From Bacteroidota bacterium (GTDB lineage Bacteria; Bacteroidota; Ignavibacteria; UBA10030; UBA6906): DNA of 64,000 nucleotides. The translations under genes were made by a program, and so were the position numbers. Positions 56,596 through 64,000 of this stretch are shown here, piece by piece (position 1 is the stretch's first letter; every line of letters begins with the position of its first letter). The notes under the pieces were generated by a model that was not told the DNA's origin, made no database searches, and worked only from the letters and a program-made list of their open reading frames with translations. Location of the stretch: positions 14,434 through 78,433 of the forward strand of contig DATJAS010000029.1 of the NCBI GenBank assembly GCA_035516035.1, read 5' to 3'.

Positions 56596-57042
56596 CTACG
56601 CCGGGGTCACCAGCTCCGCGGAAGGCCTGATCAGGTGTGAATGTGTGATGTTCACGACCGGCTTGAGCATCGCGGAGACGGAGCAGTATTTCGTCGTCGA
56701 CAGTTCGATCGCCTGCTCGACATCTGCGGCTTCTATGCCGTCTCCGTAGAAGACGTACTCCACGTGTATATCGGTGAACACCTGCGGGGGCTCCTCCCGC
56801 GCCGTTCCCGTCAGGTGGACTTCATAGCCGTCCAGCCTGATCCGTTTCTTCCTCAGTACCGATATCACGTCCATTGACGTGCATCCCCCCAGCGCAATCA
56901 GGAGCAGCTCCTTCGGGCTCGATGCGGCCGCTTCCGCTCCTGACGGATCCCGCCCGTCCATCATGACCCAGTGATTGGAGTCCGATTTCCCGGCAAGTGT
57001 GTTCCCCCGTACCTGCTTAATGACGGCTTTTTTGACGGCCAT
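56596..57042 (-). CDS. OsmC-family peroxiredoxin-like protein
   Basis: LLIALGGCTSMDV and KYCSVSAML motifs with the two conserved Cys of OsmC/Ohr. Confidence 0.8.
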   Translation of the reverse strand: MAVKKAVIKQVRGNTLAGKSDSNHWVMMDGRDPSGAEAAASSPKELLLIALGGCTSMDVISVLRKKRIRLDGYEVHLTGTAREEPPQVFTDIHVEYVFYGDGIEAADVEQAIELSTTKYCSVSAMLKPVVNITHSHLIRPSAELVTPA

Positions 57043-57167
57043 GGACTGCCTCCGGAGAGCTGTGTGGGTGGTACGTTCATTAGATGCACGGGATTGGGAA
57101 AAGGGTTATGACCCCGGAGAGATTCTTGTGCATCTCACGGGACACACAAACCCACAAACACCAGGAG

Positions 57168-57386
57168 ATGCAAGTGAGAAAGAACATCGGTAATGCCGAC
57201 CGGGTGATCCGCATTCTCGCCGCCGTGGTGGTTGCAGTCCTCCTGCTGACTGGCACGCTCTCGGGCGCTCTCGGACTCGTCCTGGGCATCGCGGGCGCGG
57301 TACTCCTTTTCACCGCTTTCGTCAGCATCTGCCCCCTGTACATGCTCCTTGGGATTTCCACGAAGAAAGCCCCCGGGGCGAAGTAG
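57168..57386 (+). CDS. DUF2892 (YgaP-like) small membrane protein
   Basis: RBS AGGAG. GNADRVIRILAAVV...CPLYMLLGIST pattern typical of DUF2892, which often accompanies rhodanese. Confidence 0.6.
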   Translation: MQVRKNIGNADRVIRILAAVVVAVLLLTGTLSGALGLVLGIAGAVLLFTAFVSICPLYMLLGISTKKAPGAK

Positions 57387-57394
57387 CCTCTCGC

Positions 57395-57652
57395 GTGCAG
57401 GCAGGCCCGGTAATGAGCGATATCAGGGCACCCAGGAATCCCGCGCATTTGAGCGCGCTGATCACGAAGTACTGCGCGGAGGCGGAGGAGAAGCTGAATG
57501 CGGCCCCCGACTACGGAACTGCGCTCCGGCTCAAGGAGACGCTCTGCTCCCGGTTCCAGGAGGAATGCGAGAGCAGCCTCGTGGTGAACGCCACGCGGCA
57601 ATACATCGACGCTGTGCTCAGGAGTCGCTGGGGAGGCGACCACAGAGGATGA
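57395..57652 (+). CDS. hypothetical small protein
   Basis: 85 aa ORF between DUF2892 and thioredoxin-like genes. No motifs. Confidence 0.3.
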   Translation: MQAGPVMSDIRAPRNPAHLSALITKYCAEAEEKLNAAPDYGTALRLKETLCSRFQEECESSLVVNATRQYIDAVLRSRWGGDHRG

Positions 57653-57685
57653 GACAGAAGTGACAAACAACCGTGAGAGGGCGCA

Positions 57686-58045
57686 ATGCTTCAGACGAAC
57701 CTGAAACACATCCTGACGGCGAAAGACCACGCGGAGACGCTGAAGGAGAATGACAATGTGATGGTATGCTGCGGCCGTATGGGGCCCATGTGCATCCCCG
57801 TTTATGCGGTCATGCAGGAGCTTCAATCGGGGTACCCGCACGTCGCATTCAGGGACATGGAATTCGATTCGCCTGACGCGGCAGTCATCAGGAACCTCCC
57901 CCAGTGCAGTGAGTTCCGCGGCCTGCCGTTTACAGTGTACTACCGGAACGGGAACGTCGTCCGCGCCACGAGCAGCATCCAGAACAGGGATGAGGTGAGC
58001 GCGATACTTGATCAGGAATTTGCCGCAAAGAGCGCGGCTGTGTAG
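57686..58045 (+). CDS. thioredoxin-fold protein with atypical CxxxxC-type active-site region
   Basis: VMVCCGRMGPMCIPVYAVMQEL and cis-Pro region GLPFTVYYRNGNVV consistent with a thioredoxin fold. Confidence 0.5.
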   Translation: MLQTNLKHILTAKDHAETLKENDNVMVCCGRMGPMCIPVYAVMQELQSGYPHVAFRDMEFDSPDAAVIRNLPQCSEFRGLPFTVYYRNGNVVRATSSIQNRDEVSAILDQEFAAKSAAV

Positions 58046-58125
58046 CGCTGCCGACGATCCCCACCGGGCCGCCGCGCTGGCCGGGGCGCCGTGACGCACG
58101 CTCCGGCAGCGGTAGCGCTCCTCTC

Positions 58126-58533
58126 TCAGTGATCTCCGTGATGCTGGTGCACCCGCCGCGGATCGTGATCGAGCGTGCCTGAGGCGATCGCGGCGATCAC
58201 CTCGTCGATTGTGCGAAGGCCGGTGAGCACCGGCAGGAGATTGGCCCGCCGGAGATGGTCGACCGCTCCCTGCCCCATCCCGCGCACAATCACTGCCTGG
58301 CAGTCGAGGATGGGGGAAACCATCGTCCGGTGCCGGTGTTCGTGGTCGTGCTCCCCCTGGCTGCTCCCCTCCGGGCCGAAACTGTGATGCCCAGCCTTCT
58401 CCCTCCGCTCCCTCCTGACGACCCTCCCTGCAGCAAGGTGGATGACCTCGTAATACCCAGCGCGGCCGAAATGCGAGCTGACCGTAGTGCCGTCGTCTGT
58501 GGCGACGGCGATTTTCGCGTTTTGCAGATCCAT
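58126..58533 (-). CDS. NifB/NifX-family (dinitrogenase FeMo-cofactor-binding domain) protein with His-rich regions
   Basis: KIAVATDDGTTVSSHFGRAGYYEV N-terminus typical of PF02579. His-rich tails (EHDHEHRHR, HQHHGDH). Confidence 0.6.
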   Translation of the reverse strand: MDLQNAKIAVATDDGTTVSSHFGRAGYYEVIHLAAGRVVRRERREKAGHHSFGPEGSSQGEHDHEHRHRTMVSPILDCQAVIVRGMGQGAVDHLRRANLLPVLTGLRTIDEVIAAIASGTLDHDPRRVHQHHGDH

Positions 58534-58537
58534 GGTA

Positions 58538-59731
58538 TTAACAGCCTCCGCTGATTTTTTTTACCGCCGGGGGTGGCGCGCTTGCGCGCGCCCTGTACTC
58601 CCGGATCATCTGCGCGAGCACCGGCTTCGCTTCCGTGCGGAAGCGGAAGGTGTCGGCTTCGTCGCGGGAGCGCGGCGGGTGGGATGGTGTGAACCCGAGG
58701 ATCGTGGAGTCGACCGCGGCGACGCCTCCCTCCAGCACGCGGACGTTATCGTAACCCAGACGGAGCGCGAGGAACGCGGCGTTCCGCGCGGCGCTGCCGT
58801 CCCTGTCGACAAACACCCGCTCTTCGTGCCGCATCCCGAGCAGGCCCGCGTATTGCTTCCCGAACAGTGCCCCGGGGGGGATATTGACGGACCCGGGGAG
58901 TATGGTGGCCGTGGAGTCCAGGGCGGTGCGGACGTCGACAATCACCAGCCGCGGGTCGCGGTCGATGATCCGGAATGCCAGCTCGTCGGCCGTCATCATG
59001 GCGATGGGGTGGCTCCTCTGGAACTCCGCGGAACGGCTCTCGTCGACGAGCAGCGTTTTCCTGTCGGGAATGAACAGCGCCACAATCCCCAGGGCGACGA
59101 GTCCCGCTCCCGCGAGCGCGTGCGCTCGGCGCGGCCACGCACGCGCGGGGCTCTCCGGGTTGACCCGCTTTTCTATCCAGGTCGTTGCCGCGAACGCGCC
59201 GACGGCGACCAGAATGAGCAGCAGTACAAACACCCCTTGCGACATCCCGAGCGAGTCGAACACCCTGATCGGCCCCAGCGCGCCGGATGCGTAGAACCCG
59301 TCGTACAAGGGGAAGAGCTCGCCGAAGACGAATACCCCCAGGATACCGCCGGATACAAAGGCGATGGCGTCTTTCTTGCCGATTGACGCCGCGACGATGC
59401 TGGTCCCCGGGCAGTATCCCCCGAGGATGAATCCCACCCCCATGATCGCCCCGCCGACGATCGCCGGCCCGAGAAACATCGGGTTGACGTAAATGATATC
59501 GGTATCCAGGTAGCCGAAATACCCGAGGAAGATTACTCCGAGCATCGCGGTGACGGCCGCAGTGAAAAACACACGGAGCACCGTAAAATCGTAGCCGTAA
59601 AAGAGCCCGGCCAGCCGCCGGGAAGACGAGAACCCCGCCTGCTCGAGCACGGCGCCGAATGCGATCCCGAGCAGGAATGCGACCACCAGGTTCATCTCGT
59701 TGGTGATGATATCGGGGACAAATGGTCCCAT
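58538..59731 (-). CDS. YeeE/YedE-family sulfur-compound transporter fused to C-terminal rhodanese domain
   Basis: GGYCPG sulphur-transport motif. Rhodanese-like C-terminus (VIVDVRTALD...NVRVLEGG). Confidence 0.75.
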   Translation of the reverse strand: MGPFVPDIITNEMNLVVAFLLGIAFGAVLEQAGFSSSRRLAGLFYGYDFTVLRVFFTAAVTAMLGVIFLGYFGYLDTDIIYVNPMFLGPAIVGGAIMGVGFILGGYCPGTSIVAASIGKKDAIAFVSGGILGVFVFGELFPLYDGFYASGALGPIRVFDSLGMSQGVFVLLLILVAVGAFAATTWIEKRVNPESPARAWPRRAHALAGAGLVALGIVALFIPDRKTLLVDESRSAEFQRSHPIAMMTADELAFRIIDRDPRLVIVDVRTALDSTATILPGSVNIPPGALFGKQYAGLLGMRHEERVFVDRDGSAARNAAFLALRLGYDNVRVLEGGVAAVDSTILGFTPSHPPRSRDEADTFRFRTEAKPVLAQMIREYRARASAPPPAVKKISGGC

Positions 59732-59762: not shown

Positions 59763-59807
59763 GAGTGGCGCCGCAGGCGCCACGAAGCAATCAGATCCAG
59801 AGCCTGC
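59763..59807. repeat. REP/MITE-like element, copy I (between the two yeeE-like genes)
   Basis: gtcattgcgag-tggcgccgcaggcgcca-cgaagcaatc. Confidence 0.7.
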
Positions 59808-60303
59808 GGAAGAAATACGCGACCAGGTACCCGCTGCCGAAGATGGCGATCATCGTCAGGAACCCGCCGCTGCTGAGCACCGCCATGCCGCTGAGCGCTG
59901 CGCCGCTGGTGCAACCCCGGGCGAACTGCGCCCCGGCGCCGAAGAGCGCGCCTCCCAGCACCGCCATGACCATGCGGAGCCCGGTCGTAGCGCGTGGACC
60001 TTTCTCCGTCACCCACGTGAGTCTCCGCGAGACCACTCCCGAGAGGAATCCCCCGAAGAGCACGCCGGCGACCTCGAAGACCAGCCACTGCTTGAGGGGG
60101 CTCCCTTCGTGGGCTCCCGCAAACTCCCTGTAAAAGGGGGAAGACTCGAGGTGGTTCGGCGAGGCAGTCTGCACGCCTGCGACGACGACGCTCTTGAGCG
60201 CGCCGCTGGCCCCGAGGCCCCGCCCGGTGAGATAAATCGTCAGCAGGAGGACGAGCCCGAGCAGCACCCCTGCCAGGTACGGATTCATGTATTTCGTGTT
60301 CAT
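59791..60303 (-). CDS. YeeE/YedE-family membrane protein (second half-transporter)
   Basis: FARGCTSGAALSG motif. ATGA overlap with upstream cytochrome b gene. Confidence 0.7.
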   Translation of the reverse strand: MNTKYMNPYLAGVLLGLVLLLTIYLTGRGLGASGALKSVVVAGVQTASPNHLESSPFYREFAGAHEGSPLKQWLVFEVAGVLFGGFLSGVVSRRLTWVTEKGPRATTGLRMVMAVLGGALFGAGAQFARGCTSGAALSGMAVLSSGGFLTMIAIFGSGYLVAYFFRRLWI

Positions 60304-60956
60304 GGCGTAGCTCCTTGTCTGGCCGCGTTGCCGGGTGAGTCCTTCTCTTCGCCGGCCTCCAGTTCCTCCCAGCCTGTGATCATGGCGCGCAGGTTCGAGA
60401 CCGGGGTCCTCCCCGTGGTGATGAGATAGAGGTGGGCGATCAGGAACGCCACGAGGAGGAACGCACCGGCCGTGTGGAGCAGCGCCACGACACGGAGCCC
60501 CTCGATGTTGAGTGCCTCGATGGCGTGGCGGGAGGGGTACCTGTAGAACATATAGAGGAGGCCGGAAAGGACAAGGACCGGGATGACCAGGATCTTGAGC
60601 CCGAGATAGACGAGCCGCTGCAGCGGGTTCAGCTTGCTCAGGCCGGTCTTCCGGGTGGGATGGGGCGCGTTCCGGAATATCCCGAAGAGGTAGTAGGCGA
60701 GTTGTGCACGGAGGTGGCTGCGCGTCGGGATATACTGGCGCCATTCACCCGTCGTCAGGTGCCAGAAGATGGCGAACGCAATGAGCGCAAGGAGCGCTCT
60801 GGCGGCGAGCGAATGGTAGCGCACCGCCTGGTCGAACCCGAAGAACGAGATGGAGCCGTGGATCTCGAACCCCGTGATCATCATGAAGAGTATCAGCAGG
60901 GCCTGCGTCCAGTGCCAGAACCGCTCAAACGCCCGGTAAATGTATTCGCGTTTCAT
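60300..60956 (-). CDS. membrane di-heme cytochrome b subunit (Ni/Fe-hydrogenase / thiosulfate-reductase cytochrome b family)
   Basis: 4 TM helices with conserved His (FERFWHWTQALL, HSLAARALLA, HLYLITTG). ATGA overlap with octaheme cytochrome gene. Confidence 0.65.
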   Translation of the reverse strand: MKREYIYRAFERFWHWTQALLILFMMITGFEIHGSISFFGFDQAVRYHSLAARALLALIAFAIFWHLTTGEWRQYIPTRSHLRAQLAYYLFGIFRNAPHPTRKTGLSKLNPLQRLVYLGLKILVIPVLVLSGLLYMFYRYPSRHAIEALNIEGLRVVALLHTAGAFLLVAFLIAHLYLITTGRTPVSNLRAMITGWEELEAGEEKDSPGNAARQGATP

Positions 60957-62527
60957 GTCCGTGTCCCCCTGCGTCGTGACCGCCGCGAGATGACCCGTGC
61001 CGCGCCGTGCACGACGACTCCCGCACATGTGAGTAGAATGAGCGTCGCGCCAGCAGTGTCGAGCGCGCCGCTGTAGTCCCGTCCGGGCATGTAGAATCCG
61101 GTCAGGCCTGCAAGGCGGGAGTCGTTCCGCGTGTGGCATTCGCCGCACCGCACTGCGTCCTCTTTCGGCGCGACCATGTGGTTGACGGGCCACACCATCT
61201 CGGTTTCGACGAATCCCATGTGACCGCTGTAAGGCTCTCCGGCAAGTGCCATGCCCGCCCTGATCGACGCATCCCAGCTGAAGTCCTGCCAGTAGCCCCC
61301 CTCCCCCTTCCGCGGGGCGAAGAGCTTCGGCTGCACGATCCGGCGGTAGACGGGGTCGTAGGGCTGCAACGCCGTGTGGATCTTGACGGGGATGATCCTG
61401 GCGTCGGGATCTCCGTAGTCGCCGTGCAGTTCGTTGAGTTTGACCGGGACGGCGACGATACTGTCCCCCAGGAGGTAGTGTGAGGCGGTGCCGTTTGACC
61501 AGGCGTACTCGGGCCGGACGTTTTTCGCCCAGACAAACGATCCCTTGATCGACATGTACGTGTCGGTGCCCGACGAATCCTTTTCTTCATACGGCTCCCC
61601 GTTCCGGAGCCTCCCCGCCGTCGACCAATCCCACCGGAGCTTGGTTTTGTTCACGCGCGCGAACAGGGGGATGTGGCAGCTCTGGCAGGCCACCTTGTAC
61701 GTATGTTCGTTCAGGATGTCGTCGTTGTGGGGCATCGCGGAGTGGCAGTCCTCGCACGCCACCCGGTTCCTGTTCATGGAGGAGATGGAATACGTCTTCC
61801 CCTTCATCTGGTGCTTGTGGGCGGTGTGGCAATCCGTGCACTGCATGTCCCCGCCGTCGAGCCCCATATGGACGTCCACCGTCCTGGTGGTGGCAAACAT
61901 CGCGGCGTCGAGGTCGCCGTGCTTGACGTTGTTCCCCCCTCCGCCGAAGAAGTGGCATGTCCCGCACGTCGTGCGCGTGGGCAGGCCGACGCTCTGCGCG
62001 ACCAGAGTGAGGTTGACCGATGAGTCAGGGAGGCCGGCTCCACCGGAGGCCTTGACATAGGTGTTGCTGTTGTCGTGGCAGGCGAGGCAGTCGACGTTCA
62101 GGGAATCCGCGAAGTCGAACGGTTTCTCGTCCGACCACCCGTACCCGATGTGGCACTTGTTGCAGCTCTGGTGGCTCCCCGCCGTGCCGATGCAGAAATT
62201 GTTCAGGATGTTCTTCTTGCCGACGTAGCGGATCCCGCGGCCCGGGATATACTCCTCCCGCTCCCAGTTCCAGTGCGAGGATTTCATCACCTCGCGCGCG
62301 CGGCCGTTATGGCAGGCAATGCATTCGTGCGTGACCTCCTGTGGCTTCGCGAAGCGCTTCCGGAGCTGGGGGAATTTTGCATGGTCGACGGATGCAGTCT
62401 CCCGCGCCCTGTACCTCCGGCGGAGCAAGTCCGTTTCGGAGGGGTCCGTCGCCCGCCGCTCGAGGGCGACGCTTGCCGCAACGAGCGCGGCGGCGATAAG
62501 CACCGTGACGATAATGACTCGTTTCAT
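60953..62527 (-). CDS. periplasmic octaheme c-type cytochrome (tetrathionate-reductase/OTR-like family)
   Basis: Signal peptide. Eight CxxCH motifs (CIACH, CNKCH, CLACH, CGTCH, CTDCH, CEDCH, CQSCH, CGECH). Confidence 0.75.
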   Translation of the reverse strand: MKRVIIVTVLIAAALVAASVALERRATDPSETDLLRRRYRARETASVDHAKFPQLRKRFAKPQEVTHECIACHNGRAREVMKSSHWNWEREEYIPGRGIRYVGKKNILNNFCIGTAGSHQSCNKCHIGYGWSDEKPFDFADSLNVDCLACHDNSNTYVKASGGAGLPDSSVNLTLVAQSVGLPTRTTCGTCHFFGGGGNNVKHGDLDAAMFATTRTVDVHMGLDGGDMQCTDCHTAHKHQMKGKTYSISSMNRNRVACEDCHSAMPHNDDILNEHTYKVACQSCHIPLFARVNKTKLRWDWSTAGRLRNGEPYEEKDSSGTDTYMSIKGSFVWAKNVRPEYAWSNGTASHYLLGDSIVAVPVKLNELHGDYGDPDARIIPVKIHTALQPYDPVYRRIVQPKLFAPRKGEGGYWQDFSWDASIRAGMALAGEPYSGHMGFVETEMVWPVNHMVAPKEDAVRCGECHTRNDSRLAGLTGFYMPGRDYSGALDTAGATLILLTCAGVVVHGAARVISRRSRRRGTRT

Positions 62528-62958
62528 GGGGTGGTTTGCTGTATCAGTTGCTTGATGCCGGCGCAGGACGTCGCCATGCGGTAGACCTCGCAGGAGCGGC
62601 ATTCCCGGCCTTCGCATGGATTGCCGGCGTGACGGTATGTCCAGCAGCCGCCGTCGTGGTCCGTGTACGCGGGACAGTGCCTGCGCTCCTCGTCCGTGCA
62701 GTGGACGAATTGCCAGCAGGGAATGAGCGAATGCATCCTGCGGATCCCGGCGATCCCGACTTTTTCTTCGGTGATCGCTCTGCGAATGCACTCAAGCCTG
62801 TGGACGTCTGCTTCGGTGTACAGTCGCTGTCCCCCTGCCGACTTGTGCGGCAGTATCAATCCCTCCGATTCGTAGAGGCGAAGCGTCTGTACGGAGACCT
62901 CGAGGAGACGGGCAACAGTCCCGATCGAATAGACAGGTTTATCAGTTCTCTGGTCCAT
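62524..62958 (-). CDS. MerR-family transcriptional regulator with C-terminal 8-cysteine domain
   Basis: MerR HTH (YSIGTVARLLEVSVQTLRLYESEGL). C-terminus CWQFVHC...HCP...GGCW...NPCEGRECRSCEV. Stop overlaps start of cytochrome gene. Confidence 0.7.
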   Translation of the reverse strand: MDQRTDKPVYSIGTVARLLEVSVQTLRLYESEGLILPHKSAGGQRLYTEADVHRLECIRRAITEEKVGIAGIRRMHSLIPCWQFVHCTDEERRHCPAYTDHDGGCWTYRHAGNPCEGRECRSCEVYRMATSCAGIKQLIQQTTP

Positions 62959-63235
62959 ACCTACAGTTATAGCTAGCAAGTTAGATGCCAGTGTAATATG
63001 TAGCTCCCAGATGCTGCGTTTTTCAGGGGAATCGGCGGGCTATCGATAAGGAGTGACAAATCCAGGTGTTGTTGCTTGCCACCAAGTGTTGCGGCTTTCA
63101 ACACTCACATGTGCGTTCGGGCTTCGGAATCGCCAATCTTGCCAAATGAGTTCTCGATTCCTGCAACCATGCAAGGTGAGGAGCGAGTCAGCGCGGGAAA
63201 TAATGCCGGCGAGATTGATTGGTGCGGACTTCCAC

Positions 63236-63292
63236 GCGAAGAAGCGGCGCCTGCGGCGCCGCAGAGGCGCCGCAGGCCGTGCAATCTCATTA
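63236..63292. repeat. REP/MITE-like element, copy J (5' arm missing)
   Basis: gaagcggcgcctgcggcgccgcagaggcgccgcaggccgtgcaatctcat. Confidence 0.5.
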
Positions 63293-63434
63293 ACACATTA
63301 TCTACGGACCGCGAACCAGGCCAGGAGGGGAAGAAGCACCGCGAGCAGGTACACCATGAACCGCAGCGCCCTCCCGAGACCCGTATCCGCGTACATGTTC
63401 AGCAGTCCTCTGTGCGTGAAGGTCGAGGCGCACA

Positions 63435-64000
63435 TCACGATGTCACCTGGAGGGCGACGTAGAACGTGTTGTCGCCTCTCCTGATGAGCAGCGCCACGCT
63501 GTCATGCTTGCCGATGTGCTCGAACGCCTTGTGGAAATCGCTCACCGACGTGATCCGGGCCTTGTTCACTTCCTTGATCAGGTCGTTCTTCTGAATCCCG
63601 GCTTCGTCAGCGGGACTCTCGGGCTTGACGGCGGCGACAAGCACTCCCTGCTCGTTGTGGAATCCGAGGGCTTTCTCGGCTGAAGCGGTCAACTCCTGGA
63701 CGGAGAGTCCGAACTGTTCGGCCGACGTCTTGTCCTGCGACGGTTCCCCTGAACCGTTTGCCGCGACATTCTTCGGCCGCTCCCCGAGCTTCACCACGAT
63801 GTCGCGCTCCTTGCCGTCGCGCAGGACCATCACGTTGGCATCCGAACCCGGCTCCGCCTCCGCGACGAGGTTCCTGAGCTGGACGCTGTTCTCCACCTCC
63901 GAGCCGTTGAACTTCGTGATGACGTCGCCCCGCTTGATCCCCGCCTTGTCGGCCGGCCCGTCACGGTTGACGCCGCCCACCAGGCACCCTTTCGTGTCCT
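63435..64000 (-). CDS. HtrA/DegP-family serine protease, C-terminal part with two PDZ domains (partial, continues beyond window)
   Basis: PDZ motifs (GVNRDGPADKAGIKRGDVITKFNG; PESPADEAGIQKNDLIKEVN). ORF open to the window edge. Confidence 0.65.
   Translation of the reverse strand, partial: DTKGCLVGGVNRDGPADKAGIKRGDVITKFNGSEVENSVQLRNLVAEAEPGSDANVMVLRDGKERDIVVKLGERPKNVAANGSGEPSQDKTSAEQFGLSVQELTASAEKALGFHNEQGVLVAAVKPESPADEAGIQKNDLIKEVNKARITSVSDFHKAFEHIGKHDSVALLIRRGDNTFYVALQVTS

Follow-up and report, generated by a model that had tools for sequence, protein, structure and literature searches.

A MerR-superfamily protein with a cysteine-rich two-CW domain at the head of sulfur-compound respiration operons: a candidate one-component sensor

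The stretch of DNA analysed here (referred to as the window) comprises 64,000 nucleotides of contig DATJAS010000029.1 (positions 14,434 to 78,433 of the forward strand; assembly GCA_035516035.1) from a Bacteroidota bacterium of the Ignavibacteria, and our subject is a small regulator gene near its right end. The open reading frame (ORF) concerned is a real gene that opens a sulfur-compound respiration operon and is translationally coupled to the gene behind it. The operon also encodes an octahaem tetrathionate reductase (OTR)-type cytochrome, a cytochrome b, a YeeE/YedE transporter in two halves and a rhodanese domain (Table 1). The initial annotation of this locus, made from the sequence alone, had placed the regulator at the head of the cytochrome operon with its stop codon overlapping the start of the octahaem cytochrome gene, and both statements hold: OTR directly follows the regulator, whose TGA (62524–62526) shares an ATGA with the ATG of the downstream gene (62525–62527). 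The OTR protein itself matches the structure of the octahaem tetrathionate reductase from Shewanella (1sp3) with an E-value of 7e-129. The cytochrome b gene comes next after OTR in all OTR-type loci with sufficient downstream sequence, and its product is likely the quinol-oxidising partner of OTR.

Table 1. Position and basis of the regulator gene, its domains, its putative control elements and the genes of the operon (window coordinates).
Feature	Position	Strand	Basis and remarks
Regulator gene, 144 amino acids	62524..62958	(-)	ATG-started ORF; MerR-superfamily DNA-binding domain and two-CW Cys-rich domain
Winged-helix DNA-binding domain, short GlnR/TnrA/HspR-like MerR type, residues 10-77	62728..62931	(-)	Pfam, fold match, AlphaFold2 model
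Compact two-CW domain, putative sensor, residues 80-132	62563..62721	(-)	Cys/Trp conservation, profile searches, hhalign
Sigma-54-like -24/-12 box TGGCATCTAACTTGC	62976..62990	(-)	Motif match and conservation upstream of orthologs
Candidate operator dyad TTGCTAGCTATAACTGTAGG	62960..62979	(-)	Extends from within the -12 TTG to the ATG; conservation, palindromes, co-variation
OTR-type octahaem c-type cytochrome, 524 amino acids	60953..62527	(-)	Translationally coupled to regulator; Pfam Cytochrome_cB; eight CXXCH
Membrane cytochrome b (Ni_hydr_CYTB)	60300..60959	(-)	Pfam
YeeE/YedE-family (Sulf_transp) half-transporter	59791..60273	(-)	Pfam; kept in OTR- and Psr-type operons
YeeE/YedE half fused to rhodanese domain	58538..59731	(-)	Pfam; conserved across loci
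Accessory genes: NifX-like (Nitro_FeMo-Co), 339-amino acid protein without Pfam match, OsmC	56596..58533	(-)	Pfam

A Pfam scan of the regulator yielded a MerR helix-turn-helix (HTH) at residues 10–75 as its sole match, which leaves the C-terminal part of the protein unassigned. Within a span of 52 residues, this part carries the eight cysteines that had been counted initially (C81, C87, C95, C105, C115, C120, C123 and C132, spaced C-x5-C-x7-C-x9-C-x9-C-x4-C-x2-C-x8-C) together with two CW pairs, while a ninth cysteine (C57) lies inside the DNA-binding domain. Searching protein records returned 86 relatives, being one identical protein labelled 'MerR family transcriptional regulator [Bacteroidota bacterium]' and 85 others, several of which carry the Joint Genome Institute label 'HspR'. 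Possible loss of the cysteines among orthologs was examined in an alignment of the 84 full-length relatives. C81, C87, C105, C120, C123, W82 and W106 are present in 84/84 of these sequences, and the less strict columns are still occupied in nearly all of them (C95 in 82, C115 in 80, C132 in 83 and C57 in 81). Because the Cys and Trp residues, including all eight C-terminal cysteines, are kept in 80–84 of the 84 relatives, they represent a conserved feature and no accident of composition.

The resulting pattern, PCW-x4-C-x7-CPAY-x6-CW-x8-C-x4-C-x2-C-VY-x5-C, was matched by no Pfam model, and no Protein Data Bank (PDB) entry resembled the domain by sequence or by fold. The NCBIfam model NF045718 ('two-CW domain') aligned to residues 80–128 of the window protein at 13.5 bits (E 0.072), short of its cut-off of 35. 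When an alignment of the regulator Cys domain alone (A2) was compared by hhalign with bona fide two-CW domains, the relationship was recovered at 98.6% probability (E 7e-16), with seven cysteines and both CW pairs in register. The MerR clade differs from NF045718 by a deletion of 10 residues between the fifth and sixth cysteines, and C132 is a cysteine specific to this clade. Judged from these profile comparisons, the Cys domain is a divergent and compact member of the named but uncharacterised two-CW domain family. The database search that the initial annotation had called for therefore had a double outcome: no characterised family claims the module, and it does have relatives.

To survey those relatives, the A2 profile was searched against 1.84 billion representative proteins, yielding 438 clusters (50% identity) at E≤1e-3. 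A MerR HTH was present in 81 of the 150 best clusters, and six of the Cys columns were kept in 142–149 of 150 distant representatives. Three of the retrieved proteins pass the NF045718 threshold in their own right, at 39–93 bits. Elsewhere, the two-CW domain occurs in chemoreceptors (as one or two C-terminal copies), in histidine kinases, in one HD-GYP protein, ahead of a receiver domain, as a stand-alone protein of 70–80 amino acids and in a membrane-anchored form of 110–130 amino acids. For P0171 and P0217, which represent the last two kinds, the contigs are too short to show a gene neighbourhood. This distribution marks it, by sequence, as a widespread and mobile sensor module that is not unique to the regulator. 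In one of the chemoreceptors (P0145), a CZB (chemoreceptor zinc-binding) domain is accompanied by two copies of the two-CW domain at the C-terminus, so that a single receptor carries two different Cys/His-type sensor modules. No literature on the function or structure of the two-CW domain was found.

Membership of the MerR superfamily, as initially proposed, was confirmed by PF13411 (MerR_1; 63.4 bits against a cut-off of 21.6, residues 10–75) and by PF00376 (47.7 bits), and the recognition helix reads SV-X-TLR, in which X is residue 24 (Q24 in the window protein). The dimerisation helix that the same annotation had placed behind a standard MerR HTH did not stand up. The AlphaFold2 model (predicted local distance difference test score 91, predicted TM-score 0.85) has helices at residues 12–18, 23–31, 49–63 and 69–77, corresponding to an HTH, a wing and two further helices. 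It contains no long α5 coiled coil, with the last helix ending at residue 77 and the Cys domain, which is modelled as small and with little secondary structure, starting at residue 80. The closest PDB protein by sequence is GlnR (4r4e; phmmer E 9e-10), with GlnR and TnrA being the nearest solved proteins. GlnR 4r4e is also the best Foldseek match (40% identity and a root-mean-square deviation of 1.2 Å over 69 columns), followed by TnrA, RacA and CarH (5c8d/5c8e). Superposition on solved MerR-family structures is limited to the first ~70 residues, and the canonical CueR, SoxR and CadR superpose over only ~60 N-terminal residues. Because the model lacks α5, GlnR and TnrA are nearest both by sequence and by fold, and the classical NCBIfam models stay below their cut-offs, the regulator is assigned, on the strength of the predicted structure, to the coiled-coil-less branch of the MerR superfamily. 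In this branch, a C-terminal module usually governs oligomerisation and repression.

Several more specific identities were tried against this domain and rejected. For SoxR, the CX2CXCX5C motif is absent and the TIGR01950 score of 27.5 bits misses the cut-off of 116.9. Models for the metal sensors MerR, CadR, ZntR and CueR score 33–42 bits against cut-offs of 143–168, through the HTH only, and the C-terminal metal loop that follows α5 in these proteins is missing. The initial annotation had likewise set the Cys module apart from metal-sensing MerR and SoxR (CIGCGC) types. HspR provides the top NCBIfam match to the HTH (NF047375), at 64.9 bits below a cut-off of 105, and was rejected as an identity given this score, the sulfur-respiration neighbours and the lack of conservation of a HAIR-like repeat described below. 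Finally, the regulator is no full member of the GlnR/TnrA subfamily, as it carries a Cys-rich C-terminus instead of a tail that binds glutamine synthetase, scores 34.3 bits against 140 with the TnrA model NF053740, and lies in a sulfur context.

The genomic distribution of the regulator was assessed in a scan of one genome per species, in which relatives were found in 499 genomes. The best 80 of these are almost all metagenome-assembled genomes (MAGs) from Ignavibacteriota or Bacteroidota, and include Rosettibacter primus, Melioribacter sp. Ez-97 and one MAG assigned to Melioribacter roseus. Downstream genes were classified at ~88 loci, some of which are duplicates of one contig. At ~50 loci the regulator heads an operon of the type found in the window (OTR-CytB-YeeE-YeeE/Rhd), at ~24 loci an operon of the type PsrA-PsrB-NrfD-YeeE-YeeE-Rhd, and at ~6 loci either DsrC-DsrE2 or DsrE2-TusA-x-CCG. 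At one locus, it is the last rather than the first gene of a Psr operon, and copies from Planctomycetota sit among DsrC and DsrMK-like genes. YeeE and rhodanese genes accompany the regulator at nearly all loci. Of the link to cytochromes suggested initially, the position at the head of a cytochrome operon thus stands, while the association proves broader, extending from OTR to PsrABC and DsrE2/TusA/DsrC. Because OTR, PsrABC and Dsr-type operons are all headed by the regulator, the common link is sulfur-compound respiration and sulfur relay rather than the cytochrome itself. The OTR, Psr and Dsr operon groups share a single sensor-domain consensus, suggesting that one common signal is perceived.

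Some loci showed further peculiarities. In two loci from Planctomycetota (L005, 3499–4332; L006, 4481–5314), a longer MerR-family gene (277 amino acids) directly follows the two-CW regulator, in surroundings with several DsrC-like and DsrMK-like (NrfD, CCG, Nitrate_red_gam) genes and no sigma-54-like box. Loci L067, L070, L074, L081, L087 and L089, from Melioribacteraceae and other Ignavibacteriales, mostly present tandem sulfur operons. In L070, L081, L087 and L089, a regulator-less OTR operon is followed by a regulator-Psr operon. In L067, L074, L087 and L089, what follows is a paralogous second regulator gene that has a box of its own and the dyad TTGATA-N8-TATCAA. Lastly, a contig labelled as a Synechococcus sp. 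UW140 MAG (L043) gave a regulator match of 53% identity in which our motif-based gene finder recognised no intact gene, and may be a mis-binned contig or carry a pseudogene.

The region directly upstream of the regulator gene was searched for promoter elements. A MerR-type promoter with a 19–20-bp spacer, which the initial annotation had expected between 62959 and 63060, is absent there, and among 83 orthologous upstream regions TTGACA-N19/20-TATAAT was not enriched (best scores of 8.45 versus 8.07 in shuffled sequences). Neither was any sigma-70-like promoter found in 62400–63600. Instead, a sigma-54-like box (core TGGCA-N6-TTG) and a dyad are located here. TGGCATCTAACTTGC is the only match of the box in the window, where 0.1 would be expected, and it shows GG at –24, GC at –12 and the TGGCAC-N5-TTGC spacing of sigma-54 promoters. 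The motif GG[CT]A-N6-[TC]TG is found at a fixed position in 81 of 90 orthologous upstream regions, with aTGGCAtAAaAgTTGctAtTtAtAAaTaTag as consensus. The transcriptional start is predicted near 62964, 6 nt 5′ of the ATG. In 35 of 76 regions the ATG lies 30–31 nt after the GG, so that under a sigma-54 reading the leader would measure ~5 nt. No rpoN gene, sought by its RpoN box, was found in the locus and window sequences searched.

Short palindromes occur 57–68 nt upstream of the GG of the box in a number of loci (L009, L073, L087, L089, L014, L021, L022, L052 and others), and their sequence is TTCCCA-N4-TGGGAA or TTTG(n)CAAA, depending on the lineage. The copies in the window, on the (-) strand, are TTTGTCAC at 63053–63060 and an adjoining perfect palindrome, TATCGATA, at 63041–63048. 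These palindromes could be sites for an activator.

The dyad overlapping the –12 element is perfect in many loci, as exemplified by TTGATATTTA|TAAATATCAA and TGTATTTA|TAAATACA. Near-perfect palindromes are enriched, with 12 of 61 regions scoring 8–9 of 9 pairs versus ~1% of controls, while the mean score is only modestly raised (6.2 versus 5.1–5.4 of 9). Because the average enrichment is modest, the argument for an operator is carried by co-variation between protein and DNA. When residue 24 of the recognition helix is Q, the right arm reads T(A/G)TAG in 34 of 39 cases and the left arm is mostly CTA or CCA; when it is E, the right arm reads ATACA (7/8) and the left arm TAT (8/8); and when it is H or P, the right arm reads TATCAA (16/22) and the left arm is mostly ATA. 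This co-variation between the dyad arms and residue 24 argues for direct binding of the regulator to the dyad. In four loci from Melioribacteraceae, an OTR operon lacking its own regulator retains TTGGCA-N6-TTG ~80 nt before the ATG and has no dyad, indicating that the box and the dyad are separable elements. The dyad is centred ~5–6 bp upstream of the predicted transcriptional start, and repression is therefore favoured over activation. Further upstream, 127–147 nt before the regulator ATG, the window holds a perfect 7-N7-7 inverted repeat, AGTGTTG-N7-CAACACT (63085–63105), with HAIR-like geometry. As an HspR-type operator it was rejected, being conserved in no other locus.

In the literature searched, no description of this regulator family was found, and an ortholog is named, as 'MerR-like', only in genome and omics papers on M. 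roseus. In this species, the ortholog MROS_1773 precedes psrABC (MROS_1774–1776; PMC3534657). The psrA transcript was near-undetectable in aerobic, microaerobic and strictly anaerobic fermenting cells, and was sharply increased in arsenate-respiring cells (PMC5492636). The authors of the latter study regarded MROS_1773 as a generic MerR-like activator and proposed metal or stress sensing (PMC5492636). These data indicate that the psr operon of M. roseus is under tight, signal-dependent control, and since psrA is off during strictly anaerobic fermentation, a pure anaerobiosis switch is disfavoured. The inducer of psrA could be an arsenic species, or a sulfur species formed in the medium.

Taken as a whole, the explanation that we tentatively prefer, at somewhat less than an even chance, is that the protein is an autoregulated, probably repressing, Cys-based one-component sensor of sulfur species or redox that operates at its sulfur-respiration operon. 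A dimer of the regulator would bind the dyad, spanning –12 to ~+1, and repress its own operon, while the two-CW domain would contain reactive thiols or else a metal centre, either Fe-S or Zn, with Cys ligands. A cytoplasmic sulfur signal would then react with this domain and change its state. A candidate for this signal is sulfane sulfur or persulfide derived from thiosulfate, which the co-encoded YeeE and rhodanese proteins might import and process; oxidising species such as tetrathionate or polysulfide are alternative candidates. By analogy with CarH and GlnR, the altered state of the two-CW domain would shift dimerisation or DNA affinity, upon which the promoter would be released. If the promoter is truly sigma-54-dependent, a separate activator would be needed as well, and none was found nearby. 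The initial suggestion of a redox- or sulfur-species-sensing protein thus remains the most reasonable reading, given the conserved sulfur-respiration context.

A number of observations weigh against this explanation. At the promoter, only 31 of 76 regions retain the –12 C of the sigma-54-like box, and neither the ±7 kb around 89 loci nor the window itself yielded a gene for an enhancer-binding protein of the GAFTGA or Walker-A type. Moreover, a conserved TATAAAT inside the dyad could be the –10 box of a leaderless mRNA, given the 30–31 nt between GG and ATG in 35 of 76 regions. The dyad of the window itself is degenerate: four of the five inner positions (AGCTA|TAACT) are paired, the outer arms read CTA-N10-TAG, and the window is GC-rich. 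The counts of co-variation between residue 24 and the arms ignore shared ancestry. The two-CW domain also occurs in proteins without an evident sulfur link, so the signal may be general redox state, and the sole induction data concern arsenate and no sulfur compound. Cofactor, ligand, oligomeric state, DNA binding and sign of regulation are, moreover, all properties that we infer.

General redox state is central to a rather unlikely alternative in which the regulator is an Fe-S switch for oxygen or redox, whose cluster would be redox-active or labile to O2 or NO, as in FNR, NsrR, RsrR or SoxR. Redox would then gate the operons, and specificity would come from another factor such as a sigma-54 activator. 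The eight conserved cysteines with their CP and CW motifs would suit such a cluster, as would the C-terminal placement of the two-CW domain in chemoreceptors and kinases (in which general redox sensors are frequent), the anaerobic respiratory enzymes encoded by the target operons and the identical sensor consensus across operon types. However, the silence of psrA in strictly anaerobic fermenting M. roseus (PMC5492636) implies that anaerobiosis alone is no inducer, and a signal specific to sulfur is suggested by the YeeE and rhodanese genes that accompany the regulator almost everywhere. That same breadth of sensor-type contexts, comprising chemoreceptors, kinases, HD-GYP and receiver proteins and even tandem copies, argues against the distinctly less probable view that one or two zinc ions merely fold the domain, which would then serve for dimerisation or for docking of a signal-bearing partner, as glutamine synthetase does with GlnR and TnrA. 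A small domain with little secondary structure and 6–8 invariant cysteines does resemble zinc knuckles, the nearest DNA-binding relatives are run by protein partners, and without the coiled coil another dimerisation device would be needed. Nevertheless, no solved zinc finger matched the fold, and no conserved partner gene was identified besides those for sulfur-relay proteins.

We consider it highly improbable that the regulator captures As(III), thioarsenate or a soft metal with its Cys cluster and thereby induces a reductase for arsenate respiration or detoxification. MerR-superfamily membership and the induction of the psr operon in arsenate-grown M. roseus, for which metal or stress sensing had been proposed (PMC5492636), would fit such a sensor, but those induction data cover arsenate cultures only and no sulfur compounds. 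Moreover, the regulator has neither α5 nor a C-terminal metal loop, scores far below the MerR, CadR, ZntR and CueR cut-offs, and is surrounded by YeeE, rhodanese, DsrE2, TusA and DsrC genes rather than by efflux or detoxification genes. Little probability is likewise given to an activating role, in which the regulator would occupy the promoter together with RNA polymerase, remodel the DNA between –12 and +1 in MerR-like fashion and might replace the enhancer-binding protein of a sigma-54 promoter. MerR proteins typically do activate by distorting DNA inside the promoter, the dyad lies exactly at the –12/+1 fork-junction region, and enhancer-binding protein genes are missing near the 89 loci. 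Against this stand the coiled-coil-less members GlnR, HspR and CarH, which mainly repress from promoter-overlapping sites, and the OTR operons that keep the box without a dyad, the promoter of which presumably works without bound regulator. We also know of no case in which the wild-type sigma-54 holoenzyme is activated independently of ATP. A bolder and very unlikely variant would combine a MerR protein at the sigma-54 –12/+1 fork junction with a new Cys8 metallocluster in the two-CW domain that senses sulfane sulfur or polysulfide, and which might license sigma-54 without an AAA+ activator. Transcription of this kind is conceivable because no enhancer-binding protein gene is linked to the ~89 loci.

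A number of features surrounding the operon are recorded here separately. At least one of the NifX-like, 339-amino acid protein and OsmC genes is found beside the operon, on either strand, in L023, L024, L029, L040, L054, L063, L075 and L080, and all three occur together in few loci besides the window, which suggests that they form a conserved accessory module. On the other side of the regulator, between this gene and an HtrA-like PDZ gene, a perfect 12-bp GC-rich inverted repeat with a 6-nt loop (GCCTGCGGCGCC / GGCGCCGCAGGC) is located at 63249–63278. It is followed by no T-tract on either strand, and may act as a barrier to transcription or form a hairpin in RNA. An ORF of 46 amino acids (63298–63438, (-) strand) with a hydrophobic C-terminal half and no Pfam match overlaps the stop of the PDZ-protease-like gene by 4 nt, and may encode a small membrane protein or be no gene at all. 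The PDZ-protease-like ORF is listed at 63435–63980, and its start may lie further upstream or beyond the end of the window.

Compared with known systems, the regulator is closest to GlnR and TnrA (Bacillus, Listeria, S. aureus), with which it shares the type of DNA-binding domain and the lack of a long α5 coiled coil. In these proteins, too, a short C-terminal part sets activity via dimerisation, and their sites are ~16–17-bp dyads overlapping promoters, as we propose here. However, their tail is free of Cys clusters and serves to bind glutamine synthetase, their targets are sigma-A promoters of nitrogen genes, and their TGTNA-N7-TNACA box bears only a loose similarity to the dyads found here. 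SoxR, also of the MerR superfamily, holds a redox-sensing [2Fe-2S] cofactor with C-terminal cysteines, but it has the α5 coiled coil, uses four cysteines (CX2CXCX5C) in an unrelated pattern and fold, and works as an activator at a sigma-70 promoter whose spacer measures 19 bp. HspR resembles the regulator in its HTH and is, as we propose for the regulator, an autoregulated repressor on an inverted repeat that overlaps its promoter, whereas it has no Cys-rich domain and the loci studied here have neither dnaK/clpB context nor a HAIR sequence. CarH and LitR join a coiled-coil-less MerR DNA-binding domain to a C-terminal cofactor sensor that sets the oligomeric state and thus repression, although their sensor is a light-responsive B12-binding domain. 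Proteins of the NF045718 two-CW family share the CW pairs and seven cysteines, while the regulator has the extra C132, the deletion and the fusion to MerR. In terms of the proposed job, the regulator corresponds to CstR, SqrR, BigR and TtrSR/ThsSR, which switch sulfur-metabolism operons through Cys-based or dedicated sensing of reactive sulfur. These proteins have CsoR, ArsR or periplasmic-sensor kinase folds and use two or three cysteines and no metal, and to our knowledge none of them belongs to the MerR family.

What is new in this regulator is the joining of a MerR-superfamily head to an uncharacterised two-CW sensor, in combination with a conserved regulon theme and an unusual promoter layout, in which a putative MerR-type operator and the –12 element of the sigma-54-like box merge. 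Should a MerR-type regulator truly act at a sigma-54 promoter, this would constitute a previously undescribed pairing of regulator and sigma factor. For the orphan two-CW domain, the regulator provides a first functional lead, as it ties the domain to a simple DNA-binding output and to the narrow context of tetrathionate, thiosulfate or polysulfide respiration and sulfur relay. Because of this linkage, the signal perceived by the two-CW domain becomes directly testable, including in the cultured M. roseus (MROS_1773), and a compact biosensor of the one-component type for reactive sulfur species could be built from the regulator. In the organisms themselves, it would explain how sulfur-respiration operons are controlled in Ignavibacteriota and Bacteroidota, groups that abound in sediments and aquifers as well as in anammox or wastewater reactors.

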